Origin: a virus
Lineage: Duplodnaviria > Caudoviricetes
Direction: 5' to 3' (one strand)
DNA length: 61,397 nt
IMG/VR virus record: IMGVR_UViG_3300042566_000075
Coordinates: 1 to 61,397 of that record
Shown: positions 1,518 through 59,697 of the stretch, piece by piece
How the letters are laid out: each line of letters begins with the position of its first letter
Position numbering within the stretch: position 1 is the stretch's first letter
Program-made: the position numbers and the translations under genes
Notes under the pieces: model-generated
Databases searched by the model: none
Seen by the model: only the letters and a program-made list of their open reading frames with translations
What the model was told of the DNA's origin: nothing

Positions 1518-1554
1518 GGGTTTGGGGTGCGCCAACCCCAACACGAAGGAGCAA

Positions 1555-1962
1555 ATGATGAATAACGAACAGTCAGTAGAAGAAATGGTGACCGCATACC
1601 GGAAAATCCGTGATGCCATCCGTGACAAAGAGGAGGAGTTCAAGGAAGAACTTGCCTCCCTGAAAGAACAATTAGACCTTGTTGCCGGAGGCTTACTCGA
1701 CATCTGCAATACGCTGGATGTAGATAGCTTACGCACCAACGCAGGAACGGTCTCTCGTCGGGTTAACACTCGGTACTGGACGAGCGATTGGGATGCGATG
1801 TATCAGTTCATTAAAGAACACGATGCACCCTTCCTGTTAGAACAACGCATCCATAATGGTAACTTGAAGCAGTTCTTGGCAGACAACCCAGAGGTTCTTC
1901 CTGTTGGCCTACAAGCCGATAACAAGTACGTCGTACAAGTCCGTAAACCTACATCTAAATAA
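1555..1962 (+). CDS. conserved phage replication-module protein with N-terminal coiled coil
   Basis: GAAGGAGCAAA RBS before ATG 1555/1558. Lies between the helicase and SSB-like genes. Confidence 0.75.
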   Translation: MMNNEQSVEEMVTAYRKIRDAIRDKEEEFKEELASLKEQLDLVAGGLLDICNTLDVDSLRTNAGTVSRRVNTRYWTSDWDAMYQFIKEHDAPFLLEQRIHNGNLKQFLADNPEVLPVGLQADNKYVVQVRKPTSK

Positions 1963-3188: not shown

Positions 3189-6035
3189 ATGGAAGAGTTT
3201 GACCTCCTATCGACAGTACAGCCATCTGAAGGGTGGTTTGCGATTTTCGGTATCAAAGGCAAAGACGATGTAAGACAGACGCTGGTTGAGACGCGTGAGG
3301 AAGCAGATAGGGTAGCCACTCTGTACCTCTCCCAAGAGCGTAATGTTTTCTTCGGTGTTGCTAAATATAAGACAGACGCAGGGCGTACCAAGGACAACGT
3401 ACAGGCGCTCCGTGCCTTATGGCTAGACATCGACTGCGGCGAAAGCAAAGCCGCAATCAGCGAAAAAACTGGCCGCCCTGACGGTTATATAGACCAAGAG
3501 ACAGGTCTTGCCGCGCTACGGGACTTCTGTGGACTCACAGGGTTACCCAAACCTACCCTTGTTAATTCAGGGCGCGGTATACACGCATACTGGACGCTTG
3601 ACCGAGACGTAACCCGCGAAGAGTGGGAGCCTGTCGCCCTCCGCCTCCGTGACTTGTGCTACACCCATAACTTCTTTGTGGACCCAGCAGTGTTTGAGGC
3701 GGCGCGCATACTGCGCATACCGGGCACGTTGAACTTCAAAGACGACCCCCCAAAACCGGTCGAAGTAATGCTCGTCGGGAAGCCGGTTAATTTTGACTGG
3801 CTTATACAGACGTTAGGTGTGAAGCACCTAGCAGCGCAGCCCAAGTGGGAGCCTACCGAACTCGGTAAGGCTATGAACAAAAGCGTCCAGTTCAACTTCG
3901 GCAAGATTATGCGCCGCAGTGAAAAGGGTGAAGGGTGCGCACAGCTTCTCCACGCGTACAGGAACCGTGATACCATAGACTATTACGATTGGTTCCACGC
4001 TATCTCGGTCGCTGCCATGTGCGAAGATGCGCCCGAGGCGGTACATATGATGTCCGAAGGGCACCCAGAATACGACCCTGCCACGGTGGAAAACAAGGTA
4101 GCCACCATCAAAGGTGCAACTAGCTGCGCTAAGTTTGAAGGGAAGAACCCAGCTTTATGTCAAGGATGCAAATGGAAGGGGGAAATCCTCGGCCCTAAGT
4201 ATCTTGGGCGTAAGATAAACGAAGCTAAGAGCAACAAAGTCGAAGAGGTCATAGATACACCCACAGGACCTAAGTCAGAAACATTCTATATACCAGAATA
4301 CCCGTTCCCGTTTTTCCGTGGGGAAGGCGGGGGTATATGGCGTAAGCCACCAAAGGGCGACGGCGACGAAGCGGAGCCTATCCTAGTATACCACAACGAC
4401 ATCTACATCGTGAAGCGTATGAAGGACAGGAAGATGGGAGAAGTCCTAGTCTTCCGCCGCCACCTACCGCTCGATGGAGTAGAAGATTTTTCGGTGCCCC
4501 TTAACGAGGTGTCCTCGAAAGACCTACTTCGCAAAGCTATATCAACATACAGCGTAGCTATTCACCCTAAGAAGTTCGACATGTTCATGGACTACGTGAT
4601 GCTGTCGGTGAACGCTACGCAGAACACAGGAAAGTTAGAAATCATGCGTAATCAATTTGGATGGGCAGACAACAACAGCCGCTTTGTCATCGGCGATCAA
4701 GAAGTTACTCGGGAGGGTATGCTCTATAGCCCACCTTCGGCAGTCACAGCGCCACTAGCACGGTATATGGGGCCGGTAGGCTCACTGGATAAATGGAAAG
4801 AAGTGTGGTCGCTGTACGGACGCCCCGGGTTGGAAGGCCATGCCTTCGCCGCGCTTAGCGCCTTTGGTGCTCCACTCTTGAAGTTCCTTAAGCAGTCCGG
4901 TGCTGCCATCAACCTCGTAAGTCCTGAGTCCGGCACGGGTAAGACAACCATCGCTCGTATGGCTATGAGTGTCTATGGGCACCCCACCGAACTTATTGCT
5001 AAGAAGTCAGACACGCTGAACGCAAAGATGCAGTGGTTGGCCATCATGTGCAACCTGCCATATTGTGTGGACGAAATCACCAATATGAGCGCTGATGATT
5101 TCTCTGAGTTGGTTTACGGTATGTCCCAAGGTAAGGGCAAAGAACGTATGACCGCGGGTGGCAACGAGCTACGTATCAACGAGACCACGTGGCAGACTAT
5201 CTCGATATGTACGTCGAACGCATCGTTCTATGAAAAGCTGTCTATCCGCAAGGATAGCCCTGACGGGGAGATGATGCGCCTGATCGAGTACCGTATTAGT
5301 CAGACGGATGCCATTAGCACCGAAGAAGGCAAGCAGATGTTCGACCAGCAGCTGATGGATAACTACGGCCACGCTGGGCCCATCTTCATGGCCTATGTGC
5401 TAGATAATATGGAGGAGGTTCTCGAAGCATGTAAGAACATCCAGTCTCGGCTTGACCTGCAGCTACGTCTAACACAGCGTGAACGCTTCTGGTCCGCTGG
5501 CGTTGCCGCTAACATCACGGCAGGTTTTATCGCCAAGATGCTGGACCTAATCGACTGGAATATGAACGATATATACCAGTGGGCATGCAACATGATTATC
5601 ACGCTGAGACAAGAGATTGAGCCGCCAGCGACGGACACAAGCCAAATCATCGGGGACTTTGTGAACCGCCACATCCAGAACACGCTCGTCGTAGACGACC
5701 AAGTGGACAGCCGTTCTAACATGGAGGTTAAACCGAAGATGGAACCGAAGGGCGAGCTAATCATTCGGTATGAACCTGACACCAAGATGCTGTTCTTTGC
5801 AGCTAAGAAGTTCAAGGAGTACTGCGTCCAGTTCCAGATTAACTACAAGGAAACCCTGCGTAGGCTAAAGAACGACGGTGTATACATAAGGAGCGACACT
5901 AAGCGGATGTCGAAGGGCATGAGGATTAACACCCTCGGCGTACAAGCACTATTCTTCGACACGTCGGTCAACGGCTTCATGGATGTAGAGGGCTTATTGC
6001 CTGTGGAGATCAGGGATGAAACTGGAGGGAGTTAG
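3189..6035 (+). CDS. primase-helicase (RepB/AEP-like primase fused to DUF927-type P-loop ATPase)
   Basis: WLDIDC, SGRGIHAYW and RILRIPGT primase motifs; Cys cluster; Walker A SPESGTGKTT; Walker B YCVDE. Start set at ATG 3189. Confidence 0.85.
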   Translation: MEEFDLLSTVQPSEGWFAIFGIKGKDDVRQTLVETREEADRVATLYLSQERNVFFGVAKYKTDAGRTKDNVQALRALWLDIDCGESKAAISEKTGRPDGYIDQETGLAALRDFCGLTGLPKPTLVNSGRGIHAYWTLDRDVTREEWEPVALRLRDLCYTHNFFVDPAVFEAARILRIPGTLNFKDDPPKPVEVMLVGKPVNFDWLIQTLGVKHLAAQPKWEPTELGKAMNKSVQFNFGKIMRRSEKGEGCAQLLHAYRNRDTIDYYDWFHAISVAAMCEDAPEAVHMMSEGHPEYDPATVENKVATIKGATSCAKFEGKNPALCQGCKWKGEILGPKYLGRKINEAKSNKVEEVIDTPTGPKSETFYIPEYPFPFFRGEGGGIWRKPPKGDGDEAEPILVYHNDIYIVKRMKDRKMGEVLVFRRHLPLDGVEDFSVPLNEVSSKDLLRKAISTYSVAIHPKKFDMFMDYVMLSVNATQNTGKLEIMRNQFGWADNNSRFVIGDQEVTREGMLYSPPSAVTAPLARYMGPVGSLDKWKEVWSLYGRPGLEGHAFAALSAFGAPLLKFLKQSGAAINLVSPESGTGKTTIARMAMSVYGHPTELIAKKSDTLNAKMQWLAIMCNLPYCVDEITNMSADDFSELVYGMSQGKGKERMTAGGNELRINETTWQTISICTSNASFYEKLSIRKDSPDGEMMRLIEYRISQTDAISTEEGKQMFDQQLMDNYGHAGPIFMAYVLDNMEEVLEACKNIQSRLDLQLRLTQRERFWSAGVAANITAGFIAKMLDLIDWNMNDIYQWACNMIITLRQEIEPPATDTSQIIGDFVNRHIQNTLVVDDQVDSRSNMEVKPKMEPKGELIIRYEPDTKMLFFAAKKFKEYCVQFQINYKETLRRLKNDGVYIRSDTKRMSKGMRINTLGVQALFFDTSVNGFMDVEGLLPVEIRDETGGS

Positions 6036-6210
6036 CTACGAGGTTAACTGGAGAAAGTTCAAACGAGGGACATCTATATTCTTCCCCTGCCTAGACCCCA
6101 AACGCGCTAAGGCACAAGTCCTAGTGGTTACCAAGCGCCTGAAGCTCAAGGTGTTGATAAAAGCGGTGATCGAAGACGGTATTAGGGGTTTACGCGTCTG
6201 GAGAATATGA
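6016..6210 (+). CDS. small basic phage protein (SIFFP...GLRVWR type), possibly DNA-binding
   Basis: 64-aa ORF overlapping the primase stop. Resembles the 56260-56460 protein in layout. Confidence 0.6.
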   Translation: MKLEGVSYEVNWRKFKRGTSIFFPCLDPKRAKAQVLVVTKRLKLKVLIKAVIEDGIRGLRVWRI

Positions 6211-6217
6211 GTATATA
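6189..6217 (+). promoter_or_regulatory. putative promoter for the 6225 small RNA
   Basis: TTTACG (6189-6194), 17-nt spacer, TATATA (6212-6217). Would start transcription near G6225, the first base of the hairpin. Confidence 0.35.
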
Positions 6218-6224
6218 CACCCTT

Positions 6225-6294
6225 GGAAGTTTGCTCCTTCCGTTAGGCACACTTTAACCCCCGGTTGCTCACTCAGCCGGGGGTTTTTATTTTT
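6225..6294 (+). ncRNA. candidate anti-Shine-Dalgarno small RNA 1 (hairpin with UUUGCUC loop plus intrinsic terminator)
   Basis: Stem GGAAG 6225-6229 / CTTCC 6237-6241. 6228-6241 is complementary over 10-12 nt to nine phage RBSs. Terminator follows. Confidence 0.6.
6256..6294 (+). terminator. rho-independent terminator at the convergence of replication and late transcription
   Basis: AACCCCCGGTTG-CTCACT-CAGCCGGGGGTT followed by a T-rich tract. Confidence 0.85.
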
Positions 6295-9200
6295 CCGGTG
6301 CGGCTGCTTGAATACCCGGCAGTGCAAACGGCGCTTCCTTCTTAGTGAAGGTTGAACCGCGCATCTGGAGGTCCCGCTCACGCTTGAACGCGTCGTAGGA
6401 GTTCTGAACAGTTTCTTCCGTAACAACCAGTGGCTCGACGGGGTGCTTTTTGTTGTATTCCACGAGCTTACGCCCTGCCGCGTCCATGTCGGTACGGTCT
6501 CGACTACCGTTTGTTTCGAAGTTGTACATCGCTTCGTTGAGGTCCCGTAGAAGCGACGTGCGTTGTTTTTCCGCGGTAGCGAATAGTTTGTTCCGCGCAG
6601 CGCGCTCCTTCTGGATTTGCGCTAGTTTTGTGGAGCCGAAGCCGGAAAGCTGAGCACCCAGTTGCGAAGAGGTTATCTCTGACTTAGCCAGCATCGGTAG
6701 TTCGCCGCGTGTTTCCGCGCCTTCTTCGGACAAACGGTACGTAGTAGCTACACCCTTAAATGCAGCGGGGAGAACTTTCTCCAGACCGCGAACTACGTCA
6801 CCTTTATACATGTCGGTGAGACCTTCACCGATGCCGGTAATTAGCGAGAGTCCCGGCACGTTAGCTTCGAGTGTCCGGAAAATAGTTTCACTAGTGGTAT
6901 CCGCCGGTTTACCTTCACGGAACCAGAGACCATCAAAAGTAGTACGTGATCCGATGTTAATGTCGGATAGCTCGGATATTGGGCCATTTACCAATATGTC
7001 GCTCAAGCGGTGCTGCAAGCCATCTATACCCGGAATGGTAATTTCCCCGAACTTACTAGGCATAAACTCGTACCGGAACCTGTAGTCAGAGTCGTTAGCG
7101 GTATAAGGGTTGCGCAGACGGCGAAGCTGCGCCTCCTCGTCATCATCGTCAGCCTCAAGCATATCTATGATAGTAGCAATAGTGCTATACAGCGGGAAAC
7201 CAGTTATGCCGTGGAACAAACCACCCATAAGCAAGACGCCCGTCAGTTCGTTCATGGCCTTTAGCCGGTCTTCGACAGACAGAAAGCCTGTCTTGCCACC
7301 CGTCAAAATGCGACGGAAGTTGTTATAGAAGAACGTAGTGGTGTTAACGGCGTACTGCTTAAAGAGAAACAACGCACGGCCAACGTCAGTACCCATCAAA
7401 CGAGGGCGGTTGAAGTCGCTGTAGTTACCCAACGTATCGTTTACGACCCCCACTGCCTTATCAACAGCAGCGTCGAAGTCTTTAGATTTGTTGTACTCCA
7501 ACTCGAAAGCCATCATAAAAGCTATTTCGCGGGTGATACGCTCCGAGGTGTTAAACAACACGGACATGCCGTTTATCGTGGACTCAGCAAGCTGTCCCGG
7601 AGTATACTTAGAAGCTCGGTCGGGCGTAGCTCGACTATCGAGAATACCCGCTACCTGAGTTTCAAAGACAGAACGCTCGTCACGAGCCATGGCAAAAGCC
7701 CGCTTTAGTACCGGGTTGGACCGCACAAACTGAGACTCACCGACAGTAGGTCCAGTATAGGATAGCTCCCCGTCGTCTTCCTCGACGATACCTATAGAGT
7801 CCCATATCTTGGAATACTTAGCCAGCATGATCGAAGACTTGGCGTAGCCGTAATCAGTCCATAGGCGCGGCATCACGCGGACAGGTATACCCGTTGTTTG
7901 CGCTACTGCGGTAGCAGCAGAGGTAAGGAACCAAACAAACGCAGCGCGGTTCAGTCTCGTGACAACGCGACCCGGTTCCTCTGGATTTATCTGCTCTAGT
8001 GCACGCTCTCCGATTTCCACGACGAAGGACTCAAGGCGCGCAGCTTCATCTAGCGGGAAGCCATCAAGGGAAGCCTTCGCTTCTTCGATAGTGTTTTTAA
8101 TACGCTGAGTGTACCGTAGACTGGTAAGCTGGTTAGCGTACTGAAAAGCAGTGGTTTTAAAGTTGCGGAACACATCTGCGCTAAAACCCGTCACGTTATC
8201 AGCGTGTAGGAATTGCTTGCGGATGCTCCGCTCAGGCAGTGTCATCAGGTAAACTTGGTATATCTGGTCTTTAATAGCGCTTACATCGACCTTGCCTTGG
8301 GTAGACGCTTTGTTGATGACCGAGAATATCTCCTGCAACATCCCGCTCTCTTCTTGGAAATTTTCCCGCAGAGAAGTGATGTCGTTACCAATCCGGAATA
8401 TACCATCGGTCCGAGGTACCTTTAGCTCGCGGGCGCGTTTGCGCAGAAAATTGTTACGTGCCCGCGCGCTTTCAAAAGCATAGAACTCACGCCCAGCATC
8501 CCCCTTGCCGACACGTAGCCAGTAGTCGCCGTAACGCTTAAAGGGAAAGTACTGCTCAGGAAAAATCGCTGGGTCAACATCAGGAAACTCGTCGTCGGAC
8601 GACTCTAGCTTACTTACGCGTTCTTTCTCCCGCTCAAGGCGCACGGCCTTCAAAAGAGCTTTCTTAGAAGCGGGGTCGATATCCAGCTTTTTGATTTGCT
8701 CGTCGAGCAGTGTGCGTGTGGTGCTGAGCATATCTTTGTAGTAGTCACGTATCTCTACGTATTGCTTATGCCCATTTTCTTGCTTACCTAGCTCTTCCCA
8801 CAGGTCGTACACCTCTTCGATCTGCGTCCGACGTTGGGTCAACTTGCCTTTAAAAGCAGCTTTTTGTTTAGGTGTAGCGGCTTTGTCCGCAATCAAAGCT
8901 TCATATCGCCGTACAACAGGGTCGTTAACAAGGGCGTCCGCCACTGTGTCATGGGCAGTCGGGTCCACACGATTTAGACGCGCAAGATGCATAGTGCTGC
9001 CCAGCACCTTTTGGCCGTTCTTACCCACGAACTTGGCGAAGCGCTGTGATATCTTAGCGAACCCACTGAGGTAAGCATTACGTTCTGCTCGCGCTTCATC
9101 TTCGAGAGTGGCTATACGCCGCAGGGCGGGCACTTCGCCTTCTTTCCATGCAATAATCCCGTCGGAGGGTAGCGCGTACAAGATACGTTTGAGCATAGTA

Positions 9201-12200
9201 TCGCCAATAGCGTTGTAGCGATCCTTCAGGCCGCCGAGGAAATCAGCAGCAGTGTGCCCTTCGATGGTGGTGCCAATACCTTCATCCAATATGCTCTTTG
9301 TCTCCGCACGGACGTCTCCATCGGGAAAGTCTTGGGCGGCGTTTGACAGCTGCACTTTACGCAAGCCCCGACTAATTTTCTTGTCGGATTTCTCAGCCTT
9401 CTTAGCTATTTTCTCAGCTTTAGCTGCCTTACGTTTTTGGAACCGTGTGCTTGCCGGTCCGGCTTTATTACCTTCGCGCACGGCACGGTCATGGGCCATC
9501 GCAAGAATAGTGGTAATCTCCGCGTCAGAAAAAGCTGCCTTGATGCGCATACGACGAGCAAAGTCTTTTACGATAGCAGCTAACTTAGCAAACATACTCG
9601 CTTCGATCCGCCCTGCTTCAGACCGCTGTGCAAGTACTTCCTCGACTGCACGGGCAAGTGGGTCTGTATCTCCGCTATAAGCGTTTGGGTTTTGCGCACG
9701 CCAAGCGTCGGTCTCGGCCCGTAGGTTACGGTTGGTATCATACATACCCCGCATCATCTTATCCAGACGCTGCCGAAACTGCTTCGCAAGACCGATATGA
9801 CCCAGCGTTTCATGGAAAAGAGTAGCTATGGCTTCTTCAGCAGTGTTGAGGTTATCAGCCACGATATAGACGTTACCGTCAGTATCCACTACGCCAGAAG
9901 GACTTAGCGCCTCTCCGCTAGTGATAGCCCCTTGAACTGAAGCAGGTAAGTCAGCCACCGACTGGACAACACTTGGTGCTTGCACGCCTGTGCGTTGCGC
10001 TACAGCTGCTACAATGGGAGTAACTTGGTCTACCGTGATATTACCGGGTTCACCGGGACGGAAGCGTTCGCCACTTATGGCCCGTTCAGCATATCGGGTC
10101 TTAGCCCCTTCGAGGACCGCACGAATTTCTTCGACTGGTTTACGACGGCTTTCAGTGGCAGTGGCAAGGAGGTTGTATGCCTTATCGTCTATCTGTTGCC
10201 CAACCTCTTCGTCCCAACGTGCAGTTTCAATCTCCTCAAGGAGAACGTCATAAGGGTCGGTTTCCGGCGCTACTTCCTCAACGGGTGCAACAGCTACCTC
10301 AGGTGCGATCTCTTCGGCTACTGGTGCGGGCTCAAGTGCGACCTCTTCGGTTACTGGCGCAACTTCTTCGGTTGCTAGCTCACGCGCTGCAATCTCTTGC
10401 CGCAGGGTTGCCTCGGCTTCAGCGTCCGCAGCTTCTTGTGCTGCTAGTTCTTGACGTCGCGTATCGACATAACCTTGTACATCTTCCTGTACAGCTACAT
10501 CGGGCGCAGCCACTATCTCAGGCGCAGCCGCTATCTCAGGCGCAGCCGCTATCTCAGGCGCAGCCGCTATCTCAGGCGCAGCCGCTATCTCAGGCGCAGC
10601 CGCTATCTCAGGCGCAGCCGCTATCTCAGGCGTAGGTGCAGGCGCAATGCCCACTTCACGCGCGCTTGCTTGGGCTATCGTTGGGATGGAGTCAGGGGCG
10701 GGGGCAGTGACTGATTTAATCGCAGCAGCAACAGGAGCTGCAGCTTGCACATCTAGTGGAGGAGCTGCAGGTGCAGCCTCAACAGTAGCCGCAGGAGGCG
10801 GAGGTGGGGCAGCAAACTTCTTGCCAGTAACCGCTTCCAGCGCAACCACGGGGTCACCACCATGCTTACCATTCGCAAGCTGGTTCTTAGCCATATCAAA
10901 CTGCTTTTGGTCAACGTCGTTCACATTGACGAGGGGATTATTGAGTATCGTGTCGTTCAGTAGCTGCCTAGCCGTGTCAACGCGTGTAGTCAGCTTGACT
11001 TTCTTATCCGCAAGGATGTTCTTAGCTTCGTCTAGTGCACCGACTCCCGCGTCCGTGCCAGTTGTAGGAACTGATACGCCAGAAACAGACTGCTCCAGTC
11101 CTCCTCCGACAGTCTCTCCAACGTCTGCAGCACCCGGTGCGGATGATGCGGTTCCGATATCAGCAGCAGCGCCTGCTCCACTTCCTCCGAGGTCATCCAC
11201 TCCGGTATCAGCATCAGCGACATCTATAGCTCCTTCCGCAGCTTCAAGGTTACGACGTGCAACCGCTTCAGCGACTTCTTGCTTCATGTTATATGCGGTG
11301 CGTAGGCGAGCGACCTCTGCTTCAAACGCAGCTTCTTCCGCTGGCATGCCCGCACGAAGCGCGGCAGTCTCAACCCGCTTAGCTACATTTTCTTCCTGAC
11401 GCGTTAACCGTCGGTCACCAAAGCCTTCAGTCGCACCTGCCACTGCACCTAGACCCGCGCCAGCAATACCTTCAAGCGTACCGGAACTAACCACGCCGCG
11501 CATGGTGTCAACGTCAAAGCCTTCGCGTTGAAGAGCGAGGTTCGTGGCAAGTTGTTCTTGTGCTCCCTGAACAAACTCAGGGACACCTTCCTTAGCTGCG
11601 ACACCCAATGCACGGCGACCTACGCCTTTAGCAGCTGCCTCTCCAGCTTCCGCTGCGGCAAGACGCCCAAACACACGCTGGCCTACCACCCTAGATAGAG
11701 CGCCTTCAATACCAGAAACACCTGATACCGCGCCTAAGCCGCCGCTAAGTAGGATTTGACCAAGGTTTTTCCCACTATATGCTTGCGCTGCGTCGGCAAG
11801 TGCTTCGGCCTTAGCTTCTGGTACACCTGCTTTTATATATTCTTCGCGCACTGCGTCATATATAGCGTTCTTAGCGGTACCTAGCCCCATGACGCCGCCG
11901 ACGAGAGCACCTGTACCCCCAACAACAGCGGCAGGAGCACCCGCATAAGTAGCAGCGGCAGTAGCCCCTATGGGTGCCGCCGCCGTACCAAAAGCCTGTG
12001 TAAGTGTATCAATCGGAGCTACAGCAAAGGCATTAATACCTGCGGCCACCTGCTGAAGAACGCCTTTGTTTTCGGCTTCTTTTAAGATTTTAGACTGCTT
12101 TTGTGCATCCTCTTTAGAGGACGCAGACATATATTCGTCAACCATCCCCTGCACATCTTTGATTGCTTTACGGACTTTTGTCCCTGCACCCGCAGCACCA

Positions 12201-12514
12201 GCGATAGCCTCAATACCGGCCCCGGTGCCTTTCATAATCCCCATGGGTATATCAGCTAAAAAGGCAAGTGGTTTACCTACAAAAGGTATTTTCTCTAACG
12301 CTGTCTCTTTTACGGGTGTTGGCTGCGCAGCTTGGGTTTGAACCTTTTTCTTTGGTCGGCCTTTAGCCAGATGGTCTGCAATCTGCTCAAAGGAGTAGCC
12401 AGCAGCCTGCGCACCTTGGACATCGAATTTATGCTCGCCCGCAAGGAAATAGGCTATTTGCGCGTCAGAGTATCCGGCCCTACGCGCAGCATCTATATCA
12501 AAAGTGCGGGGCAT
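6287..12514 (-). CDS. large internal virion/ejection polyvalent protein (2075 aa) with zincin-like HExxxH and PLxRFG-like motifs
   Basis: LFHETLGHIG motif, YFPFKRYGDY motif, duplicated N-terminal FDxxxAxxAGYS motif, last gene of the late operon, RBS CAGGAG. Confidence 0.75.
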   Translation of the reverse strand: MPRTFDIDAARRAGYSDAQIAYFLAGEHKFDVQGAQAAGYSFEQIADHLAKGRPKKKVQTQAAQPTPVKETALEKIPFVGKPLAFLADIPMGIMKGTGAGIEAIAGAAGAGTKVRKAIKDVQGMVDEYMSASSKEDAQKQSKILKEAENKGVLQQVAAGINAFAVAPIDTLTQAFGTAAAPIGATAAATYAGAPAAVVGGTGALVGGVMGLGTAKNAIYDAVREEYIKAGVPEAKAEALADAAQAYSGKNLGQILLSGGLGAVSGVSGIEGALSRVVGQRVFGRLAAAEAGEAAAKGVGRRALGVAAKEGVPEFVQGAQEQLATNLALQREGFDVDTMRGVVSSGTLEGIAGAGLGAVAGATEGFGDRRLTRQEENVAKRVETAALRAGMPAEEAAFEAEVARLRTAYNMKQEVAEAVARRNLEAAEGAIDVADADTGVDDLGGSGAGAAADIGTASSAPGAADVGETVGGGLEQSVSGVSVPTTGTDAGVGALDEAKNILADKKVKLTTRVDTARQLLNDTILNNPLVNVNDVDQKQFDMAKNQLANGKHGGDPVVALEAVTGKKFAAPPPPPAATVEAAPAAPPLDVQAAAPVAAAIKSVTAPAPDSIPTIAQASAREVGIAPAPTPEIAAAPEIAAAPEIAAAPEIAAAPEIAAAPEIAAAPEIVAAPDVAVQEDVQGYVDTRRQELAAQEAADAEAEATLRQEIAARELATEEVAPVTEEVALEPAPVAEEIAPEVAVAPVEEVAPETDPYDVLLEEIETARWDEEVGQQIDDKAYNLLATATESRRKPVEEIRAVLEGAKTRYAERAISGERFRPGEPGNITVDQVTPIVAAVAQRTGVQAPSVVQSVADLPASVQGAITSGEALSPSGVVDTDGNVYIVADNLNTAEEAIATLFHETLGHIGLAKQFRQRLDKMMRGMYDTNRNLRAETDAWRAQNPNAYSGDTDPLARAVEEVLAQRSEAGRIEASMFAKLAAIVKDFARRMRIKAAFSDAEITTILAMAHDRAVREGNKAGPASTRFQKRKAAKAEKIAKKAEKSDKKISRGLRKVQLSNAAQDFPDGDVRAETKSILDEGIGTTIEGHTAADFLGGLKDRYNAIGDTMLKRILYALPSDGIIAWKEGEVPALRRIATLEDEARAERNAYLSGFAKISQRFAKFVGKNGQKVLGSTMHLARLNRVDPTAHDTVADALVNDPVVRRYEALIADKAATPKQKAAFKGKLTQRRTQIEEVYDLWEELGKQENGHKQYVEIRDYYKDMLSTTRTLLDEQIKKLDIDPASKKALLKAVRLEREKERVSKLESSDDEFPDVDPAIFPEQYFPFKRYGDYWLRVGKGDAGREFYAFESARARNNFLRKRARELKVPRTDGIFRIGNDITSLRENFQEESGMLQEIFSVINKASTQGKVDVSAIKDQIYQVYLMTLPERSIRKQFLHADNVTGFSADVFRNFKTTAFQYANQLTSLRYTQRIKNTIEEAKASLDGFPLDEAARLESFVVEIGERALEQINPEEPGRVVTRLNRAAFVWFLTSAATAVAQTTGIPVRVMPRLWTDYGYAKSSIMLAKYSKIWDSIGIVEEDDGELSYTGPTVGESQFVRSNPVLKRAFAMARDERSVFETQVAGILDSRATPDRASKYTPGQLAESTINGMSVLFNTSERITREIAFMMAFELEYNKSKDFDAAVDKAVGVVNDTLGNYSDFNRPRLMGTDVGRALFLFKQYAVNTTTFFYNNFRRILTGGKTGFLSVEDRLKAMNELTGVLLMGGLFHGITGFPLYSTIATIIDMLEADDDDEEAQLRRLRNPYTANDSDYRFRYEFMPSKFGEITIPGIDGLQHRLSDILVNGPISELSDINIGSRTTFDGLWFREGKPADTTSETIFRTLEANVPGLSLITGIGEGLTDMYKGDVVRGLEKVLPAAFKGVATTYRLSEEGAETRGELPMLAKSEITSSQLGAQLSGFGSTKLAQIQKERAARNKLFATAEKQRTSLLRDLNEAMYNFETNGSRDRTDMDAAGRKLVEYNKKHPVEPLVVTEETVQNSYDAFKRERDLQMRGSTFTKKEAPFALPGIQAAAPEK
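10503..10632. repeat. 18-bp tandem repeat x7 (GGCGCAGCCGCTATCTCA) encoding PEIAAA on the minus strand
   Basis: Six identical units plus one with a single mismatch. Confidence 0.95.
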
Positions 12515-45576: not shown

Positions 45577-45697
45577 CCTCACTTTGTTAGGTAGTTTCGT
45601 GCGATTTTTCTTGTGTTATCCCTCAAATTGTGGGACAAACAAATCATCGAGAGAGCAACAACGCTACTCGATACCACACACAATAGGAGCAAACATT

Positions 45698-46180
45698 ATG
45701 ACTAACACAGTATCAGTAACAGCAGCACGCAATGCCTACATGAAGGCTACCGAGTCTACATATGGTAAGCTGCGCGAATATGCCGAGAGCCTTACCGAGC
45801 AGCTAGGCGAAGGTTGGTGGCTTATCCCAATGAAAGGCCCGCTGTCTGGTAATGAAGCCAAGGTGCGGGAAGCTATCCGAGCAGAGAAGGCTCTAGTGCT
45901 TGAGCTAGCCAAGGAGAAGAAGGCCAAGAACCCTAAGTATAATGAGTATAAGCCTTGGTCTGACGTGCTTAAGTATGTGAAGCCTGAAGTCAAGAAGGGT
46001 GCTGGTGCTAATGCGCCACGGGATATCCACGACCGCTTTGTCACCGAGCTTACCAAGCTCTATAAGGCAGGCAAGGCAGATGAGAACCCGACCGAGGCAA
46101 CACTCGACGCTACGTTCTTTATCGGCAAGGGCCTCGAAATACTCGGCATCGACCTGACACAATTCAACCTAATGGACTAA
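45698..46180 (+). CDS. first early gene, hypothetical (160 aa)
   Basis: AGGAGCAAAC RBS before ATG 45698. Followed by two hairpins. Confidence 0.8.
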   Translation: MTNTVSVTAARNAYMKATESTYGKLREYAESLTEQLGEGWWLIPMKGPLSGNEAKVREAIRAEKALVLELAKEKKAKNPKYNEYKPWSDVLKYVKPEVKKGAGANAPRDIHDRFVTELTKLYKAGKADENPTEATLDATFFIGKGLEILGIDLTQFNLMD

Positions 46181-46187: not shown

Positions 46188-46268
46188 GGGGAGGCGCAAG
46201 CCTCCCCGACCTAACTAAGTTACAACCCCTCACCGAACCCTCATGCGCAAGCATGGGGGTTTTTGTTT
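46188..46268 (+). terminator. GCAA-loop hairpin (46188-46207) plus intrinsic terminator (46236-46268)
   Basis: GGGGAGGC-GCAA-GCCTCCCC, then AACCCTCATGC-GCAA-GCATGGGGGTT-TTTGTTT. Confidence 0.85.
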
Positions 46269-46363
46269 GCACCTCGCACAGCAGGGTGAACGCGTCTAAC
46301 TTAGTTAGGTGTCGCCATGATAGTAGTCCTGCGGATGAGGCGACCAAGTGGGTAGGTGAAAAC

Positions 46364-46787
46364 CTTACAATACATAAACCTTACGTTACTAGCCCTAACT
46401 AAGTTAGACCCCCATGATAGTAAGCATGAGGATGAGGCGACCGAGGTATTGTAAGGAAAGTTGGGTAACGTAAGAAAAGTAAGCCCTATTGTAAGAAAAT
46501 GACCCACGCATTTCTGCGCTTTGTAAGGGTCGTAAGGGTTGTAAGGTTTTTTTCAGGGTTCGCTCCGGAAAGACGCCCTCTCGCAGATGCACCGCGTAAC
46601 CCGTAAGAAAAATCGCCCCAGCCCTTATTATTATTATTTTTACCTTACTTTCTTACATTACAACCAATTTCCTTACTGAAACCCGCAGGCTTCTGCCATT
46701 TTCTATTGTAAGTTTTTCTCTCTCACTTTTCTTACATTACCCCAATTTTCCTTACAAAGCGCAGTTTTCCGTCACCCATTTCCTTAC
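46364..46787. other. probable replication origin: inverted GTAAG/CTTAC iterons around an AT-rich core
   Basis: 18 GTAAG/CTTAC in about 425 bp. Orientation flips across TTATTATTATTATTTTT at 46625-46641. Confidence 0.7.
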
Positions 46788-46792
46788 ACTGC

Positions 46793-46870
46793 CTAACCTT
46801 GTTAGACGTGCCCGACCTCGTGCCCACATGACTTGACATAAGAGGGACTTTGTGTTACATTAAAAAGAAA
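46793..46870 (+). promoter_or_regulatory. early promoter module A
   Basis: Palindrome, CCCGACCTCGTGCCCACAT, TTGACA 46833-46838, 17 nt, TG-n-TACATT 46856-46861. Confidence 0.8.
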
Positions 46871-46930
46871 AACAAAAGGCCAGACAGGTTCGACCCAACG
46901 GACCTAACAAAGTTAGAGAAGGAGCAAAAT

Positions 46931-47122
46931 ATGCACTGCAATTGTGGCGATGAAATAAATCCGAGACGCGTAGCCCTTGGCTACCGAACATGTCCTGTGT
47001 GTGGGGACCGAGAGGCACGGCAGGTAAAGTTTACCACTGTGCCTCTCAACAAGTCCAACTACGTTGTGGTCTCCGACTACCGCGAACTGGCATGGCTCAA
47101 CCCTAAGAACGTCAACATCTAA
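46931..47122 (+). CDS. DksA/TraR-like C4 zinc-finger protein (63 aa)
   Basis: CNCGDEINPRRVALGYRTCPVC. GAAGGAGCAAA RBS. Confidence 0.6.
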   Translation: MHCNCGDEINPRRVALGYRTCPVCGDREARQVKFTTVPLNKSNYVVVSDYRELAWLNPKNVNI

Positions 47123-47133
47123 CAAAGTGAGGA

Positions 47134-47379
47134 ATGAAAATGGTTAGTGACTTAAGCATTAAGATGAAAGCGGCTGTCCTGCTACGCAGATATGACCAGC
47201 TACGCAGAGAGCTACGAGAGACAGAGTATGAGTTAGGCCCAGCCGTGGCCGAATACGGCATACAGACTGGACGCCGAGGCCTATCGAAAGACCACTTCCG
47301 TAGCGAACTTGAACGTGAGGAACTTATCCGACTGGAGATAGCAGCCGAGCGTGACGCATGGGAGAAAGCAAATGGATGA
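47134..47379 (+). CDS. hypothetical early protein
   Basis: 81-aa ORF with GAGG RBS. Confidence 0.65.
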   Translation: MKMVSDLSIKMKAAVLLRRYDQLRRELRETEYELGPAVAEYGIQTGRRGLSKDHFRSELEREELIRLEIAAERDAWEKANG

Positions 47380-47521
47380 GCTGAACGATTGGGACAAGGT
47401 AGCACTGGCCTTCGACATACTGGAGAACGCCGAGGTGATGCAGGAGTTTGACACAACACTATGGATACAGGTGGACCGCGACTTGTGGGAAGCCTTTTGC
47501 GAAGAAGGATATAACGGATGA
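47372..47521 (+). CDS. 49-aa acidic protein (not in ORF track), MDELNDWDKVALAFDILENAEVMQEFDTTLWIQVDRDLWEAFCEEGYNG
   Basis: GGAG RBS, overlaps both neighbours, 14 of 49 residues are D/E. Confidence 0.65.
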   Translation: MDELNDWDKVALAFDILENAEVMQEFDTTLWIQVDRDLWEAFCEEGYNG

Positions 47522-47676
47522 CCGAACAACCAACCAAAGACCGCAACTACTACCGCATGCTCACCAACAACGAGCTTATCGCCACCGCCAAGGAACGCTT
47601 ACACCTAACAGAGTTAGAGCAGGTGCTAACCGAGCGGTTACTAAAAGCCGAGCGCGAGAGGAAGAACAATGACTAA
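47518..47676 (+). CDS. 52-aa hypothetical protein (not in ORF track)
   Basis: ATGA overlap, AAGGA RBS. Confidence 0.6.
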   Translation: MTEQPTKDRNYYRMLTNNELIATAKERLHLTELEQVLTERLLKAERERKNND

Positions 47677-47767
47677 CACACTACTACATATAGCAGCCGA
47701 GATATTCTTCGTAAGCGCAGGTATCTTCGCAGTGTGGGCCATCCACACAACCATCAAGGGGAAATGA
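47669..47767 (+). CDS. 32-aa single-TM peptide (not in ORF track)
   Basis: MTNTLLHIAAEIFFVSAGIFAVWAIHTTIKGK. GAGG RBS, fills the gap. Confidence 0.55.
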   Translation: MTNTLLHIAAEIFFVSAGIFAVWAIHTTIKGK

Positions 47768-47768
47768 C

Positions 47769-48185
47769 ATGGGTTATCGGTCAGAAGTAGATGTAGTTAT
47801 CTACGCACCAGTGGACAGCGGCACATCATACCCGTTGCTCAAGCTGTGGTTCGACGAGAACTACCCCGTCAAGGAAGCCAAGGACGAATGGGAAGCGAGG
47901 ATTACCTACGACCCAGAGAGCCGAGGCATCTCCGTCTACTACAATGACGTGAAGTGGTATGACACCTACGAACATCCGCAAGCGGTGGAGAGAGTGTTCG
48001 ATGCCATCGACCGACTGCTAGACGAGCAAGCAGTGTTGGGCGACCCCACGGCGTTCAACATAGCATGGGAGTTTGTGCGCCTTGGCGAGGAAGACCAAGA
48101 CACCGAGATAAGGATGAGCGCCAACGCAGATGCGGTAATCGCAGTGAACCGCTCAACAGAGATATCGTTTCAATCACAAGCCTAA
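47769..48185 (+). CDS. acidic early protein (MGYRSEV...KWY...FVRLGE type)
   Basis: 138-aa ORF in the early operon. Confidence 0.75.
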   Translation: MGYRSEVDVVIYAPVDSGTSYPLLKLWFDENYPVKEAKDEWEARITYDPESRGISVYYNDVKWYDTYEHPQAVERVFDAIDRLLDEQAVLGDPTAFNIAWEFVRLGEEDQDTEIRMSANADAVIAVNRSTEISFQSQA

Positions 48186-48207
48186 CAAAGTTAGAAGGAG
48201 CAAACAC

Positions 48208-49152
48208 ATGGGCTGGAATAATCACTACCGCAACTGGGACATACCCAGACTTGCATCATACAACGACGCAGTGAAGCGCGAGGCGACAGTCAAACCTATT
48301 CGCGGCGATGCTAACGGAACTAAGCCGCTGGGTGCGCGCAACAAGAAATACTACAACATACGCAAGGAGGGTAATGACATCGTGGTGCGGATGCATGCCA
48401 CGGACATCGTGCGTTACCATCCAGATAATACGCTAACCATACAGAATGGTGGCTGGGTATCGCCCTCGACGCACGACATGTTCAACATGTTACTTGGGCT
48501 ACATATGCGCACCTTCCACTACAGGGCTTGGGTTACTTGCTACATGCGCAGGGCCATAGGGTCAAACGCGCCTGAGATTGTGCATGGCGAGTGGCGGCTA
48601 CCTAACAACGTGCCAGTGAGGATTGTCCCGCACGAAGGCCACTGGCTACTCGACGACATGGAAGAGAACGTGACGCATGCGGTCAACCGCAAGGCAGCTA
48701 ACAAAGTTAGGAAGGAATACGCAGGGTTTCGGACATACCTCTCCGCAATGACCAAGCTGCGCACCGAGTATGTATCGCAGCCGCGCTGGAATGGGCCTGA
48801 TGTGACCCTACCCGTGGTGAAGGTAAGCCGCAGTGAGCTTGAGGCGCACAACCTCATAGACTACACCGCTGTGGTGGAAGCTAACCGCAAGTGCGCGTCA
48901 CAAGGAGACAACCTCAAGGGACTGATACGTAGCGACAAGCCGGAGGATAACTACCGAGCCTTGCTTACTATCATGAGAAGTGCCCACGAGGGACGGTATT
49001 GGATTAGCTCCGAGGGTATATCCATCGCACCAGAGCGCATAACCAAAACGTTCGAAGAACTAGTCATGTTCATGCACCGCTATGAGGTGCTGGAGCGCAA
49101 GCCAGCGAAGCGGGGTGTGCCGACACGGGACCGCTATATAAATTGGTTCTAA
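48208..49152 (+). CDS. hypothetical early protein (314 aa)
   Basis: GAAGGAGCAAAC RBS. Confidence 0.8.
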   Translation: MGWNNHYRNWDIPRLASYNDAVKREATVKPIRGDANGTKPLGARNKKYYNIRKEGNDIVVRMHATDIVRYHPDNTLTIQNGGWVSPSTHDMFNMLLGLHMRTFHYRAWVTCYMRRAIGSNAPEIVHGEWRLPNNVPVRIVPHEGHWLLDDMEENVTHAVNRKAANKVRKEYAGFRTYLSAMTKLRTEYVSQPRWNGPDVTLPVVKVSRSELEAHNLIDYTAVVEANRKCASQGDNLKGLIRSDKPEDNYRALLTIMRSAHEGRYWISSEGISIAPERITKTFEELVMFMHRYEVLERKPAKRGVPTRDRYINWF

Positions 49153-49228
49153 CAAAGTTAGAGGTCCCCGACCTCGTGCCCACATCACTTGACTTGGGTA
49201 TATTATTGTGCTACAATAAAAAGAAAAA
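49149..49228 (+). promoter_or_regulatory. early promoter module B
   Basis: Palindrome, CCCGACCTCGTGCCCACAT, TTGACT 49189-49194, 17 nt, TG-n-TACAAT 49212-49217. Confidence 0.85.
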
Positions 49229-49291
49229 GCTGGGAAATCAGCCACCTAGAGTAAACAAACCTAACAAAGTTACACACGAAGGAGCAATATA

Positions 49292-50359
49292 ATGTCTATT
49301 GATTTTGGTTCAAACATCTCGCTTGCCGAAGCCGCAGAGCTTATCGCAGCTATCCCCGACAATCGGTTCCTACTTGAGGGTGAGCCTGGGATTGGCAAGT
49401 CCAGTATCATGAAGTCGCTCAAGGCCAAGCTAGGTGACCGCTACGTCTATGCCTACTTTGACTGCGCTCAGAAAGACCTTGGCGACATCGCCATGCCGAG
49501 CGTGAACCGCGAGCTACGGGTAACAGAGTATTTCCCCAATGCTGCGCTCCAGTTGCAGCATGGCAAGCCAGCAGTCATCATGCTTGACGAGTTTGCTAAG
49601 GCTCCGCCGCCTGTGCAGAATATGCTTCACCCGCTACTCGAAGAACACAACCCACGGCTAGGCGACATTGAGCTACATCCAGACTCAATCGTGTTCCTTA
49701 CGTCTAACTTGTCAAGCGATGGTGTTGGCGATGTTATCAAGGGCCATACTCTTAACAGAGTATCCAGAGTGCGCGTAGCCAAACCAGACAGCGACCAGTG
49801 GCTTGAGTGGGCTATCAACAACGACATCGAGCCTGTTGTCATGGCTTGGGTAAAGCAGTTCCCTCATGCGCTGGCTTCATACACTGACGGCACGCAGAAC
49901 GAGAACGCATATATCTACAACCCCAAGGCTATGCAAAAGTCGTATGTCAGCCCACGCTCTTTGTCTCGTGCTTCTAACATAGTTAGGCGTCGTGAGCAGG
50001 TATCATCCAACGCTCTTACCGCTGCGCTATCAGGCACAATCGGTGAGGCAGCAGCGCGGGATATGCAAGCCTACATCACATACCAAGACCAGCTACCGAC
50101 ATGGGAACACATCACATCCAAGCCCAATGATGCGGCTATCCCTGCGTCAGCAGGTGCATGTGCGGTGCTTATCTTCGGTGCAATCATGAAGGTGACCAAA
50201 GAGACAATGGCTCCGTTCATGACCTACCTGTCTCGCTTCGAACCAGAGTGGCAAGCATGCTTCGCTATTAACATTGCGAAGAACCCACAGCGTCAGTCGG
50301 TTGCGTTTTCATCCGCTGCGTTCGCTAACTGGGTGCGGGACAATGAGGACTTACTCTAA
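49292..50359 (+). CDS. MoxR/dynein-related AAA+ ATPase
   Basis: GEPGIGKS Walker A, IMLDEF Walker B, TSN sensor I, LNR and SPRS motifs. Confidence 0.88.
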   Translation: MSIDFGSNISLAEAAELIAAIPDNRFLLEGEPGIGKSSIMKSLKAKLGDRYVYAYFDCAQKDLGDIAMPSVNRELRVTEYFPNAALQLQHGKPAVIMLDEFAKAPPPVQNMLHPLLEEHNPRLGDIELHPDSIVFLTSNLSSDGVGDVIKGHTLNRVSRVRVAKPDSDQWLEWAINNDIEPVVMAWVKQFPHALASYTDGTQNENAYIYNPKAMQKSYVSPRSLSRASNIVRRREQVSSNALTAALSGTIGEAAARDMQAYITYQDQLPTWEHITSKPNDAAIPASAGACAVLIFGAIMKVTKETMAPFMTYLSRFEPEWQACFAINIAKNPQRQSVAFSSAAFANWVRDNEDLL

Positions 50360-50381
50360 TACCAACACAAGGAGCAAACTA

Positions 50382-51578
50382 ATGGATATGCAGAAAGCAG
50401 AGCGTAAGCTCAAGAAAGTCAAGATTAACCTCATGCGCAACCCCATGTTCGCATTGTGGTCTGGCATCATGATGGTCGGTAAGACTAGCGTAGCAGAGGA
50501 CGTGCCAACGGCATGCACCAATGGCCGCGACGAGATATACGGCTTGGAGTTCATAACAAAGTTAGACGAGAAGCAGCTAGGGTTCGTCGTGCTACACGAG
50601 AACATGCACAAGGGCTTACGCCACATGACAACATGGCAGAAGCTCCGAGCAGAGAACCCACGCCTAGCTAACATCGCAATGGACCATGTAATCAACCTTA
50701 TGATTATGGAGATGGACCCGAACGAGCAAGTCATCGCCATGCCTCGCCTTGATGATGGCACACCGATGGCGTGTTACGATACCAAATACAAAGGCATGAA
50801 CACCAAGCAAGTCTTCGACCTACTGAAGCAGGACAATCCAGATGGCGAAGGTGGCGAAGGCTTCGACGAGCATGACTGGGATGGGGCCAAGGAGATGACC
50901 GCCGAGGACCGCAAGGAACTAGAGCGCGAGGTGGACCAAGCCCTACGCCAAGGCCAGATAGCAGCTATGAAAGCTACGGGTAAAGGTGGGCTAAGTGTCA
51001 ACCGAGAGCTAGGCGACATGCTCCAGCCACAGATAGACTGGCGCGAAGCACTGCGTGAGTTTGTGTCCGCTACCTGCAATGCCAAGGATGCGTCATCATG
51101 GCGCAGGGTCAACAGGCGCATGCTGGGCCAAGATGTGTATCTTCCTACGCTAGTAGGGGAGAAGGTCGGACATATCGCTATCGGCATAGACACAAGTGGC
51201 TCTATCGGTGCGGACGAACTCAATGTGTTCCTGTCCGAGGTCAAGGCTATCGTCGAGGAGGTGCATCCCGACAAGCTAGACCTCATCTATTGGGATGGCA
51301 ACGTAGCGGGGCATGAGGTCTACGACATGGCAACTATGTCTAACCTTGTTAGCTCTACTAAGCCAGTAGGTGGAGGCGGCACTGACCCAACCTGTATGAT
51401 GCGCTACCTCAAGGAACAGAACATCAAGCCAGAGTGCATCATCCAGCTGACTGACGGGTATGTCTGTGACTGGGGTGACGAGTGGGATGCGCCCATCATG
51501 TGGGTAATCTCAGAGTCGCGCTACACATCGGGACGTATCGTAGCGCCAGTGGGTAAGACTGTGCATATCAAGGGGTAA
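50382..51578 (+). CDS. putative metallopeptidase plus VWA-like domain protein (DUF2201-type)
   Basis: TACTNG, HENMH (HExxH), IDTSGSI MIDAS, GGGGT and LTDG motifs. Start at ATG 50382. Confidence 0.85.
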   Translation: MDMQKAERKLKKVKINLMRNPMFALWSGIMMVGKTSVAEDVPTACTNGRDEIYGLEFITKLDEKQLGFVVLHENMHKGLRHMTTWQKLRAENPRLANIAMDHVINLMIMEMDPNEQVIAMPRLDDGTPMACYDTKYKGMNTKQVFDLLKQDNPDGEGGEGFDEHDWDGAKEMTAEDRKELEREVDQALRQGQIAAMKATGKGGLSVNRELGDMLQPQIDWREALREFVSATCNAKDASSWRRVNRRMLGQDVYLPTLVGEKVGHIAIGIDTSGSIGADELNVFLSEVKAIVEEVHPDKLDLIYWDGNVAGHEVYDMATMSNLVSSTKPVGGGGTDPTCMMRYLKEQNIKPECIIQLTDGYVCDWGDEWDAPIMWVISESRYTSGRIVAPVGKTVHIKG

Positions 51579-51588
51579 GGAGCAAACA

Positions 51589-51834
51589 ATGACTAAAGCA
51601 ATCATACGTTACGGCTACGACAACTATATCGTGGAGGCAGAGGATGCGCTGCGCATACATGAAATCCTAGCCAAGGCTGAACACTACCATAGGAACTACC
51701 GCTCAACAGCAGATGGCGGCACTACCTACCATGTCTGGGAGCAGGACATGAGCAGTGAGATGCGTGACATAACGCTTATGCCCGATGGCCTTTACCGCAT
51801 GGCAAAGCTGGCGGGTAAACCAGAAGATAAATAA
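51589..51834 (+). CDS. hypothetical early protein
   Basis: 81 aa, AAGGAGCAAAC RBS. Confidence 0.75.
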   Translation: MTKAIIRYGYDNYIVEAEDALRIHEILAKAEHYHRNYRSTADGGTTYHVWEQDMSSEMRDITLMPDGLYRMAKLAGKPEDK

Positions 51835-51896
51835 AATACCGGATAGCAAACCGGACGACCTAACTAGGTTACATATAACACAATAGGAGCAAACTA

Positions 51897-52739: not shown

Positions 52740-52762
52740 GGCACAGGTAAGGAGTAACAACA

Positions 52763-53632: not shown

Positions 53633-53805
53633 CCGAGGAACTAAAACGCAAACGCGGACAGCGTGGGCTGGGCAAGCGTCCGGCCTTGGGAGGTCACGTT
53701 ACCATACGCCTATCGAGCGAAGCTATGGACTTCTATAGGAGCTTCCCTAGCTTCACAGCTAAGATGCGTGAAGTCTTAACAGACTACGCTGATACACACA
53801 GATAA
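53629..53805 (+). CDS. 58-aa BrnA-antitoxin-like ribbon-helix-helix protein (not in ORF track)
   Basis: RGQRGLGKRPALGGHVTIRLSSEAMDFYRSFPSFTAKMREVL fits the GRP..VTIRL..V..F...RIN..L layout. ATGA overlap, AAGGA RBS. Confidence 0.7.
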   Translation: MTEELKRKRGQRGLGKRPALGGHVTIRLSSEAMDFYRSFPSFTAKMREVLTDYADTHR

Positions 53806-53863: not shown

Positions 53864-53875
53864 CTTCATTAGCGT

Positions 53876-59685: not shown

Positions 59686-59697
59686 GGAGCAAATGAA

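Follow-up and report, generated by a model that had tools for sequence, protein, structure and literature searches.

A predicted small RNA family of uncultured tailed phages, complementary to a tag on the ribosome-binding sites of early genes

What is encoded in the short gap where the two gene arms of a tailed phage converge? The DNA studied here, hereafter the window, is the complete virus record IMGVR_UViG_3300042566_000075 of IMG/VR (Duplodnaviria; Caudoviricetes), a stretch of 61,397 bp with direct terminal repeats. Its plus-strand (early) genes, among them an SNF2-type helicase and a DUF927 primase-helicase, run from ~45.6 kb to the end of the record and on to 6,210. The minus-strand (late) genes extend from 45,545 back to 6,287 and include those for the terminase, the major head protein and a protein of 2075 aa. 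Between the stops of the open reading frame (ORF) 6016-6210 (+) and of ORF 6287-12514 (-) lies a convergent gap of 76 bp (6211-6286). An original prediction made from the letters of this DNA had placed in a gap of under 80 bp a hairpin, GGAAG-UUUGCUC-CUUCC, followed by an intrinsic terminator, and had proposed that the hairpin loop is antisense to a ribosome-binding site (RBS) shared by early and middle genes. Direct reading and a terminator scan locate both elements, the hairpin (6225-6241) and a strong terminator, inside the gap. We consider it probable that the element is a trans-acting anti-RBS small RNA (sRNA) of ~68 nt that has its own promoter and down-regulates the early and middle genes carrying a tagged RBS. 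The parts of this interpretation that can be tested on sequence all came out in its favour and so support it; its transcription, its repressive action and its timing we infer.

The hairpin presents an invariant core, (U)GCUCCU, which is an anti-Shine-Dalgarno (anti-SD) sequence extended into the loop, and the RNA is complementary over 10-12 nt to the tagged RBS (A)AGGAGCAAA(C), which is found at about one quarter of the early and middle genes and at no late gene. With complementarity measured as contiguous pairing with 6225-6247, all ten RBSs that had been named as exact complements over 10-12 nt are indeed so, by uninterrupted Watson-Crick pairs, and the RBSs near 52749 and 53917, said to match with one G-U pair, do so over 9 and 11 nt (Table 1). 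The sequence AGGAGCAAA occurs nine times in the window, compared with 0.52 expected, and none of 100 shuffles reaches nine. Eight of the copies lie at plus-strand RBSs, and the only minus-strand copy is the complement of the hairpin.

At least 119 IMG/VR stretches hold the 17-mer of the hairpin without a mismatch. About one third of these at least 119 listed matches are unrelated coding sequence; the remaining loci share one architecture, in which the end of a small ORF is followed by a TA-rich box, the hairpin, a lineage-specific linker and a strong terminator. Among the matches listed there are 67 unique contexts bearing a terminator, and 65 of the 67 follow an ORF that ends in G-L-R-(V/I)-W-R. 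A scan with this coding motif only returned at least 117 stretches and exposed variants of the hairpin, with loops TTTGCTC, TTGCTC, ATGCTC, CTGCTC, TTTTGCTC, AATCGCTC and others, and with stems GGAAG/CTTCC, GAGAG/CTCTC, GCAAG/CTTGC, GGTAG/CTACC, GACAG/CTGTC and GAAAG/CTTTC in the raw sequences. GCTCC is invariant in the resulting alignment of 92 sequences (A1), from which we built a covariance model (R1) with both helices supplied by hand.

The model finds one strong copy in the window (6221-6292, 74.6 bits, E 4e-17), the next match, at 22.5 bits, being the antisense of an RBS. Over 81 sources it returns 71 matches, namely the copy of the window plus 70 from 80 related loci. In the model-fitted alignment 95.2% of the cells are paired, compared with 78.7% in shuffles (0 of 500 reach the observed value) and 50-62% when the partners are slid. 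Hairpin 1 shows, over 53 distinct sequences, changes on both sides at four of its five stem pairs, with 91% of cells paired, and the terminator shows such changes at seven of ten stem pairs, with 97% of cells paired; these pair counts lean towards the supplied structure, and the stem variants are independently visible in the raw sequences. Because the stem variants are compensatory, selection acts on the pairing, as one would expect of a nucleic acid that works single-stranded, in other words of an RNA. The element of the window thus bears out the view of a conserved, structured RNA with its own terminator, and belongs to a large conserved RNA family in uncultured tailed phages.

For the distribution of the tag, a candidate RBS was defined as a GGAG placed 5-10 nt ahead of the ATG or GTG of a reading frame no shorter than 40 codons, and the four bases after GGAG were scored. 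In the family loci, the GGAGCAAA tag (GGAG followed by CAAA) is present at 94 of 402 candidate RBSs of the early arm (sense) versus 0 of 87 of the late arm (antisense), so that, as had been proposed, the tag is particular to early and middle genes. In the window itself, CAAA follows GGAG at 8 of 24 candidate RBSs on the early side versus 0 of 24 on the late side, where RBSs mostly read GGAGA, and in an unrelated phage group it does so in 0 of 68. The loop reaches beyond the core Shine-Dalgarno (SD) and matches the non-SD extension CAAA(C), which has no counterpart in late genes.

Furthermore, the original prediction had suggested asking in related phages whether the loop and the RBS extension co-vary, and the answer is positive at two positions, one linking the stem to RBS base -2 and the other linking the loop to AGGAGCGAA or AGGAGCAAA. 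The third base of the hairpin 3′ arm faces RBS base -2. Where the arm is CUUCC (74 loci), 75 of the 90 unique tagged RBSs have A at this base and 8 have G; where it is CUCUC (19 loci), 10 of the 22 tagged RBSs have G there and 8 have A (Fisher p = 2e-4 versus CUUCC). Untagged candidate RBSs in the CUCUC phages have G at -2 in only 3 of 45. For the loop, five records with UUCGCUCC (two sequence groups, 98 kb) hold eight sense-strand copies of AGGAGCGAA and none of AGGAGCAAA. Four of the eight sites were inspected, and all four are RBSs at the usual spacing, reading AGGAGCGAAnn and then ATG or GTG. One AGGAGCGAA RBS in the UUCGCUC-loop lineage lies ~4.66 kb upstream of the RNA, which is the same distance as that of gene 1555-1962 in the window; judged by position, the two genes may be orthologous. 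In the second CGCUCC group the sense strand has GCGA 8 times versus GCAA 6 times, and the UGCUCC phages have GGAGCA 182 times versus GGAGCG 18 times (Fisher p = 0.008, on small numbers). These comparisons show that, as read from the genomes, the RNA hairpin and the RBS tag change together between lineages. Twelve loci of divergent members without GCTCC were set aside, as RBS matches to their RNAs are only scattered over 8-11 nt and too weak to use.

Next we consider where such an RNA would start. The proposed promoter TTTACG-17-TATATA reads as claimed in both hexamers and in the spacer, and comparison among relatives supports it. In 65 contexts collected without constraint on this region, the Leu codon in the -35 is TTA in 54, TTG in 11 and CTN in none; the Arg codon next to it draws on the full CGN set (CGT 26, CGC 19, CGA 14, CGG 6). 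All 98 unique members have a TA at a spacer of 16-18 nt, compared with 5-54 of 98 for the other offset trios, and in 74 of the 98 it reads TAT. The stop codon begins 3-4 nt upstream of the TA box in 93 of 98 members and the box lies past the stop in 95 of 98; the box is thus non-coding, because it stands just after the stop codon. From its end to the first base of the hairpin there are 6-7 nt in most members (7 in the window), and to the GCTCC core 14-15 nt in 78 of 98. Such an arrangement is what a host-type promoter starting the RNA at the hairpin would show, and the conserved non-coding box speaks for a promoter.

Under this hypothesis, a host-type promoter lying within the final codons of the 64-aa ORF would drive synthesis of the RNA, which would end at the intrinsic terminator where the early and late arms converge. 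Pairing would nucleate at the loop (UUUGCUC with GAGCAAA) and spread into the 3′ arm, which would open to cover the SD. The occluded RBS would then block initiation, and the translation of the tagged genes would be lowered or shut off as the RNA accumulates. Three general marks of an sRNA are present: a conserved seed against several translation-initiation regions (GCTCC invariant, with ten RBSs), a Rho-independent terminator with a U-tail, whose stem covaries in the family, and compensatory change between seed and targets, uncorrected for phylogeny and not seen for short-loop variants. As regards an RNA chaperone such as Hfq, the U-tailed terminator is the one visible feature.

The same element could act on the same targets with no promoter of its own, as the 3′ untranslated region (UTR) of the early operon, either within the mRNA or processed from it in the manner of 3′UTR-derived sRNAs. 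The element stands directly after the last plus-strand gene and uses the terminator of that arm, its -10 is non-canonical and its start site is a predicted one, all of which would suit such an origin; a processed 3′ end, however, needs neither a TA(T) box at a fixed distance from the -35 and from the hairpin in 98 of 98 members nor the constraint on synonymous sites of the -35. We regard this alternative as unlikely, and the two routes, a promoter of its own and 3′-end processing, are not mutually exclusive.

The search for an earlier description bears on a further alternative. A cmscan of all 61,397 bases on both strands against Rfam 15, as had been suggested, returned no family at its gathering score, and the best matches below threshold are bacterial anti-SD sRNAs (suhB/MmgR, ar14 and NsiR1). 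RF00519 (suhB/MmgR, alphaR8) scores 24.9 bits at 6210-6299 and 25.0 in one relative (L002), compared with a gathering score of 41, and in the cmscan alignment the consensus GUUUcCUCCCU of its 10-mer anti-SD motif faces GUUUGCUCCUU, which is similar and not the same. RF02344 (ar14), which we take to be the alphaproteobacterial 'cuckoo'/CcsR RNAs, scores 22-25 bits in the loci of 3 of 11 relatives, below its gathering score of 58.8, and has no match in 6100-6400 at E up to 10. This likeness is one of design and not of membership: alphaR8 and ar14 share with the phage RNA a short length, an exposed CU-rich anti-SD motif, a Rho-independent terminator and many RBS targets. The phage RNA differs from them in its motif, GCUCCU with a UUU loop extension, in being encoded by a phage, and in its predicted regulon, which consists of the phage's own early genes, set apart by an RBS tag of their own whose changes go with those of the RNA. 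The alphaR8 family (MmgR, SisA-D) shares a 10-mer with the anti-SD signature (PMC12559287).

It could accordingly be asked whether the RNA is a general anti-SD RNA directed at the host during takeover, its match to phage RBSs being a by-product of the resemblance between RBSs. That the invariant core GCUCCU complements the near-universal AGGAG, that the sub-threshold Rfam likeness is to bacterial anti-SD sRNAs (suhB/MmgR 24.9 bits, ar14 25 bits) and that the terminator loops and linkers of many members hold further CUCC motifs would all agree with this. Host targets do not, however, explain why loop and phage tag change together, and the loop matches a CAAA(C) extension that late phage genes lack; we find a host-directed role improbable.

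A third possibility is that the hairpin is a binding site, either for a protein (the 64-aa protein, or a RegA/RegB-like factor that also reads the tag) or at the level of DNA. Homologues of the 64-aa ORF number 75, measure 44-72 aa and come from environmental or viral sequences only; G58, L59, R60 and W62 are invariant. Its product is predicted by AlphaFold with a pLDDT of 93.8 as strands, one helix and then a beta-hairpin; it finds nothing in a profile search of Pfam, PHROGs or PDB, and only viral hypothetical clusters in the ESM Atlas. The ORF and the RNA are always adjacent, and the two may therefore work together. This adjacency and the palindromic arms, which could suit a dimer, speak for a protein site, as does the precedent of T4 RegB, which reads an extended early-gene SD and so shows that a protein can read an RBS tag (PMC3014915). 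Yet the hairpin holds the complement of the tag and not the tag, and a single RNA-binding protein would not recognise the two alike; covariation maintains the pairing of the stem arms, with the loop staying asymmetric; and the 64-aa protein has no significant fold or sequence match, to nucleic-acid-binding or other proteins (best Foldseek E-value 0.34). We therefore give a binding site very little credence. Least credible of all is an accessory terminator stem or mRNA stabiliser with functionless RBS complementarity, for which the shortness of the element, its place beside a terminator and the weakness of the hairpin alone could be cited, against a 12-nt consensus match, a core that is invariant across lineages with differing linkers and terminators, and the tag co-variation. 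It is the co-variation of RNA and tag that disfavours these last three explanations, the host-directed, the protein-site and the stabiliser ones.

Several observations weigh against a trans-acting sRNA with its own promoter. Only ~10-12 of the ~37 plus-strand genes are tagged. By duplex energy, 14 of 37 start regions of the plus arm and 7 of 47 of the minus arm are at -16 kcal/mol or below, and the arms are not cleanly separated; because these energies overlap, specificity must rest on the contiguous GAGCAAA match of the loop and not on total energy. The minimum free energy fold of the 68-mer of the window pairs the 5′ end with the linker and does not form the GGAAG/CUUCC hairpin, and RNAalifold on a plain MAFFT alignment called the terminator only. 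As 56 of the 92 sequences in the model came from the exact 17-mer search, the apparent invariance is inflated. Phages with the 6-nt loops AUGCUC and CUGCUC keep GGAGCAAA as one of their top tags (4 of 16 and 3 of 21), hence pairing beyond GGAGCA is not always kept. The stem is not tracked by the RBS bases at -3 and -4, and the co-variation counts take all loci alike, uncorrected for shared ancestry. At the promoter, the -10 hexamer is without the usual final T, which is present in only 18 of 98 members, and a generic sigma-70 scan did not list the site, because the hexamer ends in A. As for expression, five sequencing runs with small shares were found; comparison of four of them, wetland metatranscriptomes, with 5600-6900 gave nine sparse pieces of 151-267 nt, none over 6128-6259, and is uninformative either way.

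Known phage systems resemble parts of the proposed sRNA. T4 RegB cuts early mRNAs at an extended SD motif, GG*AGRAYARAA, and T4 RegA acts as a repressor on the initiation regions of early and middle mRNAs (PMC3014915). This post-transcriptional shut-off of early genes at initiation regions is the closest functional analogue of the early-RBS tag; the T4 effectors are proteins, whereas here an RNA effector acting by base pairing is proposed, and there is no homology. The loops of the c4 RNA of P1 and P7 pair around the ant RBS and block translation (PMC12197685), so that c4 is likewise a phage-encoded RNA with loops pairing at the RBS of a phage mRNA; it acts on one operon (ant) in lysogeny control, whereas here ~10 dispersed genes share a tag. 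The c4-type Rfam families gave no match at gathering score or at E up to 10. The lambda RNA LPR1/PreS is described as a phage-encoded base-pairing sRNA that regulates host genes (10.1101/2024.10.31.621285), and by that account its targets are genes of the host and not a tagged set of phage genes. Matching by words, we found in open-access papers and bioRxiv no title or abstract on a phage sRNA that targets a tagged set of its own early RBSs, although an earlier description elsewhere is possible; together with the absence of an Rfam family at threshold, this agrees with the original statement that no system of this form was known to have been described.

What would be new, then, is the logic: a co-evolving RBS tag that would define an intragenomic phage regulon, built on the design of base-pairing anti-SD sRNAs. 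In a wider form, for and against which we hold the case to be about evenly balanced, a clade of uncultured tailed phages would run an RNA tag/anti-tag timer, in which a private SD extension on early and middle genes would be read by one sRNA, encoded where the early arm ends, that turns them all down at once in a lineage-specific, co-evolving code. Were this true, temporal control of phage genes would be written into RBSs and read by a single small RNA, a task that, to our knowledge, is so far known at RBSs for proteins (T4 RegA and RegB) and not for an RNA. Such a timer would be an RNA counterpart of RegA/RegB and the first phage sRNA with a regulon defined by its own genome-wide RBS tag. The family is large, with hundreds of environmental contigs. 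Because natural compensatory variants exist (tag A/G with loop U/C, and -2 A/G with stem U/C), the idea is directly testable with reporters. The tag also offers a simple early-gene marker for annotating this phage group, and the RNA and its tag could serve as a compact orthogonal translational switch in synthetic biology.

Table 1. Predicted RNA element, its promoter and the tagged or candidate target RBSs in the window (RNA ends are taken from the geometry of promoter and terminator)
Feature	Position	Strand	Remarks
Tagged RBS GAAGGAGCAAA of gene 1555-1962 (DUF7307-like)	1545-1555	+	11-nt Watson-Crick complement; duplex -21.0 kcal/mol
64-aa ORF	6016-6210	+	Final codons G-L-R-V-W-R-I-stop carry the -35 of the putative RNA promoter
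-35-like TTTACG	6189-6194	+	Inside the 64-aa ORF; direct reading
-10-like TATATA	6212-6217	+	Non-coding, one base past the stop codon; 17-nt spacer from the -35
Predicted small RNA, ~68 nt	6225-6292	+	5′ anti-RBS hairpin, linker, intrinsic terminator; covariance model R1
Hairpin GGAAG-UUUGCUC-CUUCC	6225-6241	+	Loop and 3′ arm form the anti-RBS seed, 6228-6241
Variable linker GTTAGGCACACTTT, 14 nt	6242-6255	+	Unconserved in the family; GGTTG or CATCACTCC recurs within subgroups
Intrinsic terminator, stem-loop 6256-6285 and T-run	6256-6294	+	Shares bases with the stop codon of the facing 2075-aa gene
Tagged RBS AGGAGCAAAC of gene 45698-46180	45685-45694	+	10-nt complement
Tagged RBS of gene 46931-47122	46918-46928	+	11-nt complement
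Tagged RBS of gene 48208-49152	48194-48205	+	12-nt complement
Tagged RBS of gene 49292-50359 (MoxR-like AAA ATPase, Pfam AAA_5)	49278-49287	+	10-nt complement
Tagged RBS of gene 50382-51578 (DUF2201 metallopeptidase/VWA-like, Pfam)	50369-50380	+	12-nt complement
Tagged RBS of gene 51589-51834	51577-51587	+	11-nt complement
Tagged RBS of gene 51897-52739	51885-51895	+	11-nt complement
Weaker candidate target AAGGAGTAA of gene 52763-53632	52749-52757	+	6-nt Watson-Crick, 9 nt with one G-U
Weaker candidate target AAGGAGTAAAC of gene 53930 onward	53916-53926	+	6-nt Watson-Crick, 11 nt with one G-U
Tagged RBS GGAAGGAGCA of gene 55437-55712	55421-55430	+	10-nt Watson-Crick, 12 nt when G-U pairs count
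Tagged RBS of gene 59698-60231	59684-59693	+	10-nt complement

The terminator scan gives the stem-loop at 6256-6285 as 12 pairs (8 of them G-C) with a 6-nt loop, followed by a T-rich tail. The terminator loop of the window (6266-6277) has an extra CU-rich motif, TTGCTCACTCA, and in alignment A1 the terminator loops or linkers of many family members hold further CU-rich motifs (CCTCC, TCCTCCCC and GCATCACTCC); second seeds are a possible role for them. In the UUCGCUC-loop lineage the RNA is seemingly longer, an extra 5′ hairpin and a single-stranded CUUUCUCCUUU standing ahead of the conserved hairpin (L014 and L018 at ~6985-7097; also L224, L228 and L230).

Two other readings of the element were tried and rejected. 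As a tRNA-like structure it fails, since ARAGORN finds nothing in the window, and as a minus-strand RBS it fails because no start codon follows the minus-strand AGGAGCAAA at the usual spacing and the flank is not conserved.

A blastn search of 5000-8000 against 50,697 phage records and a tblastn search for cultured relatives with the 64-aa ORF gave no match, and the best match of the primase is Pseudomonas phage Rollin at 27.9% identity; on these grounds we found no isolate of the group. A pattern scan of GTDB genomes found family members on three contigs (L211, L212 and L213) of metagenome-assembled genomes (MAGs) labelled Sericytochromatia, Actinomycetota and Bacillota. One of these contigs is 61.7 kb long, about the size of the whole phage, and the three are probably mis-binned phage contigs, with MAG phylum labels that are not host labels.

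The final gene of the late arm, 6287-12514 (-), encodes the 2075-aa protein, of which the C-terminal ~950 residues match profiles of giant virion-associated PHROGs (phrog_10089, E 7e-46; phrog_11358, E 8e-45), the former carrying the label 'DarB-like antirestriction'. In the early arm, the AAA_5 ATPase gene is followed by the DUF2201/VWA-like gene (49292-51578, +), and both RBSs are tagged.

A 13-bp palindrome, CTAAC-N3-GTTAG, is present in ~16 copies at 46211-55403 (plus-strand listing; also at 45578), in only the left part of the early arm, and its copies often stand directly upstream of tagged RBSs or of promoter-like blocks. Among complete relatives, four close ones have 9-12 copies in one ~10-kb stretch, another has 15 and four have none. 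Possible roles for the palindrome are a hairpin signal and an operator bound by a phage regulator. A link between it and the linker motif GTTAGG was dropped, the palindrome being found in four relatives with that linker and in one without it, and being absent from four others. Two near-identical blocks (CCCGACCTCGTGCCCACAT.ACTTGAC), at ~46806-46850 and 49163-49205, each stand after a copy of the palindrome; with the TTGAC-type hexamers in them, they have the look of duplicated early promoters.

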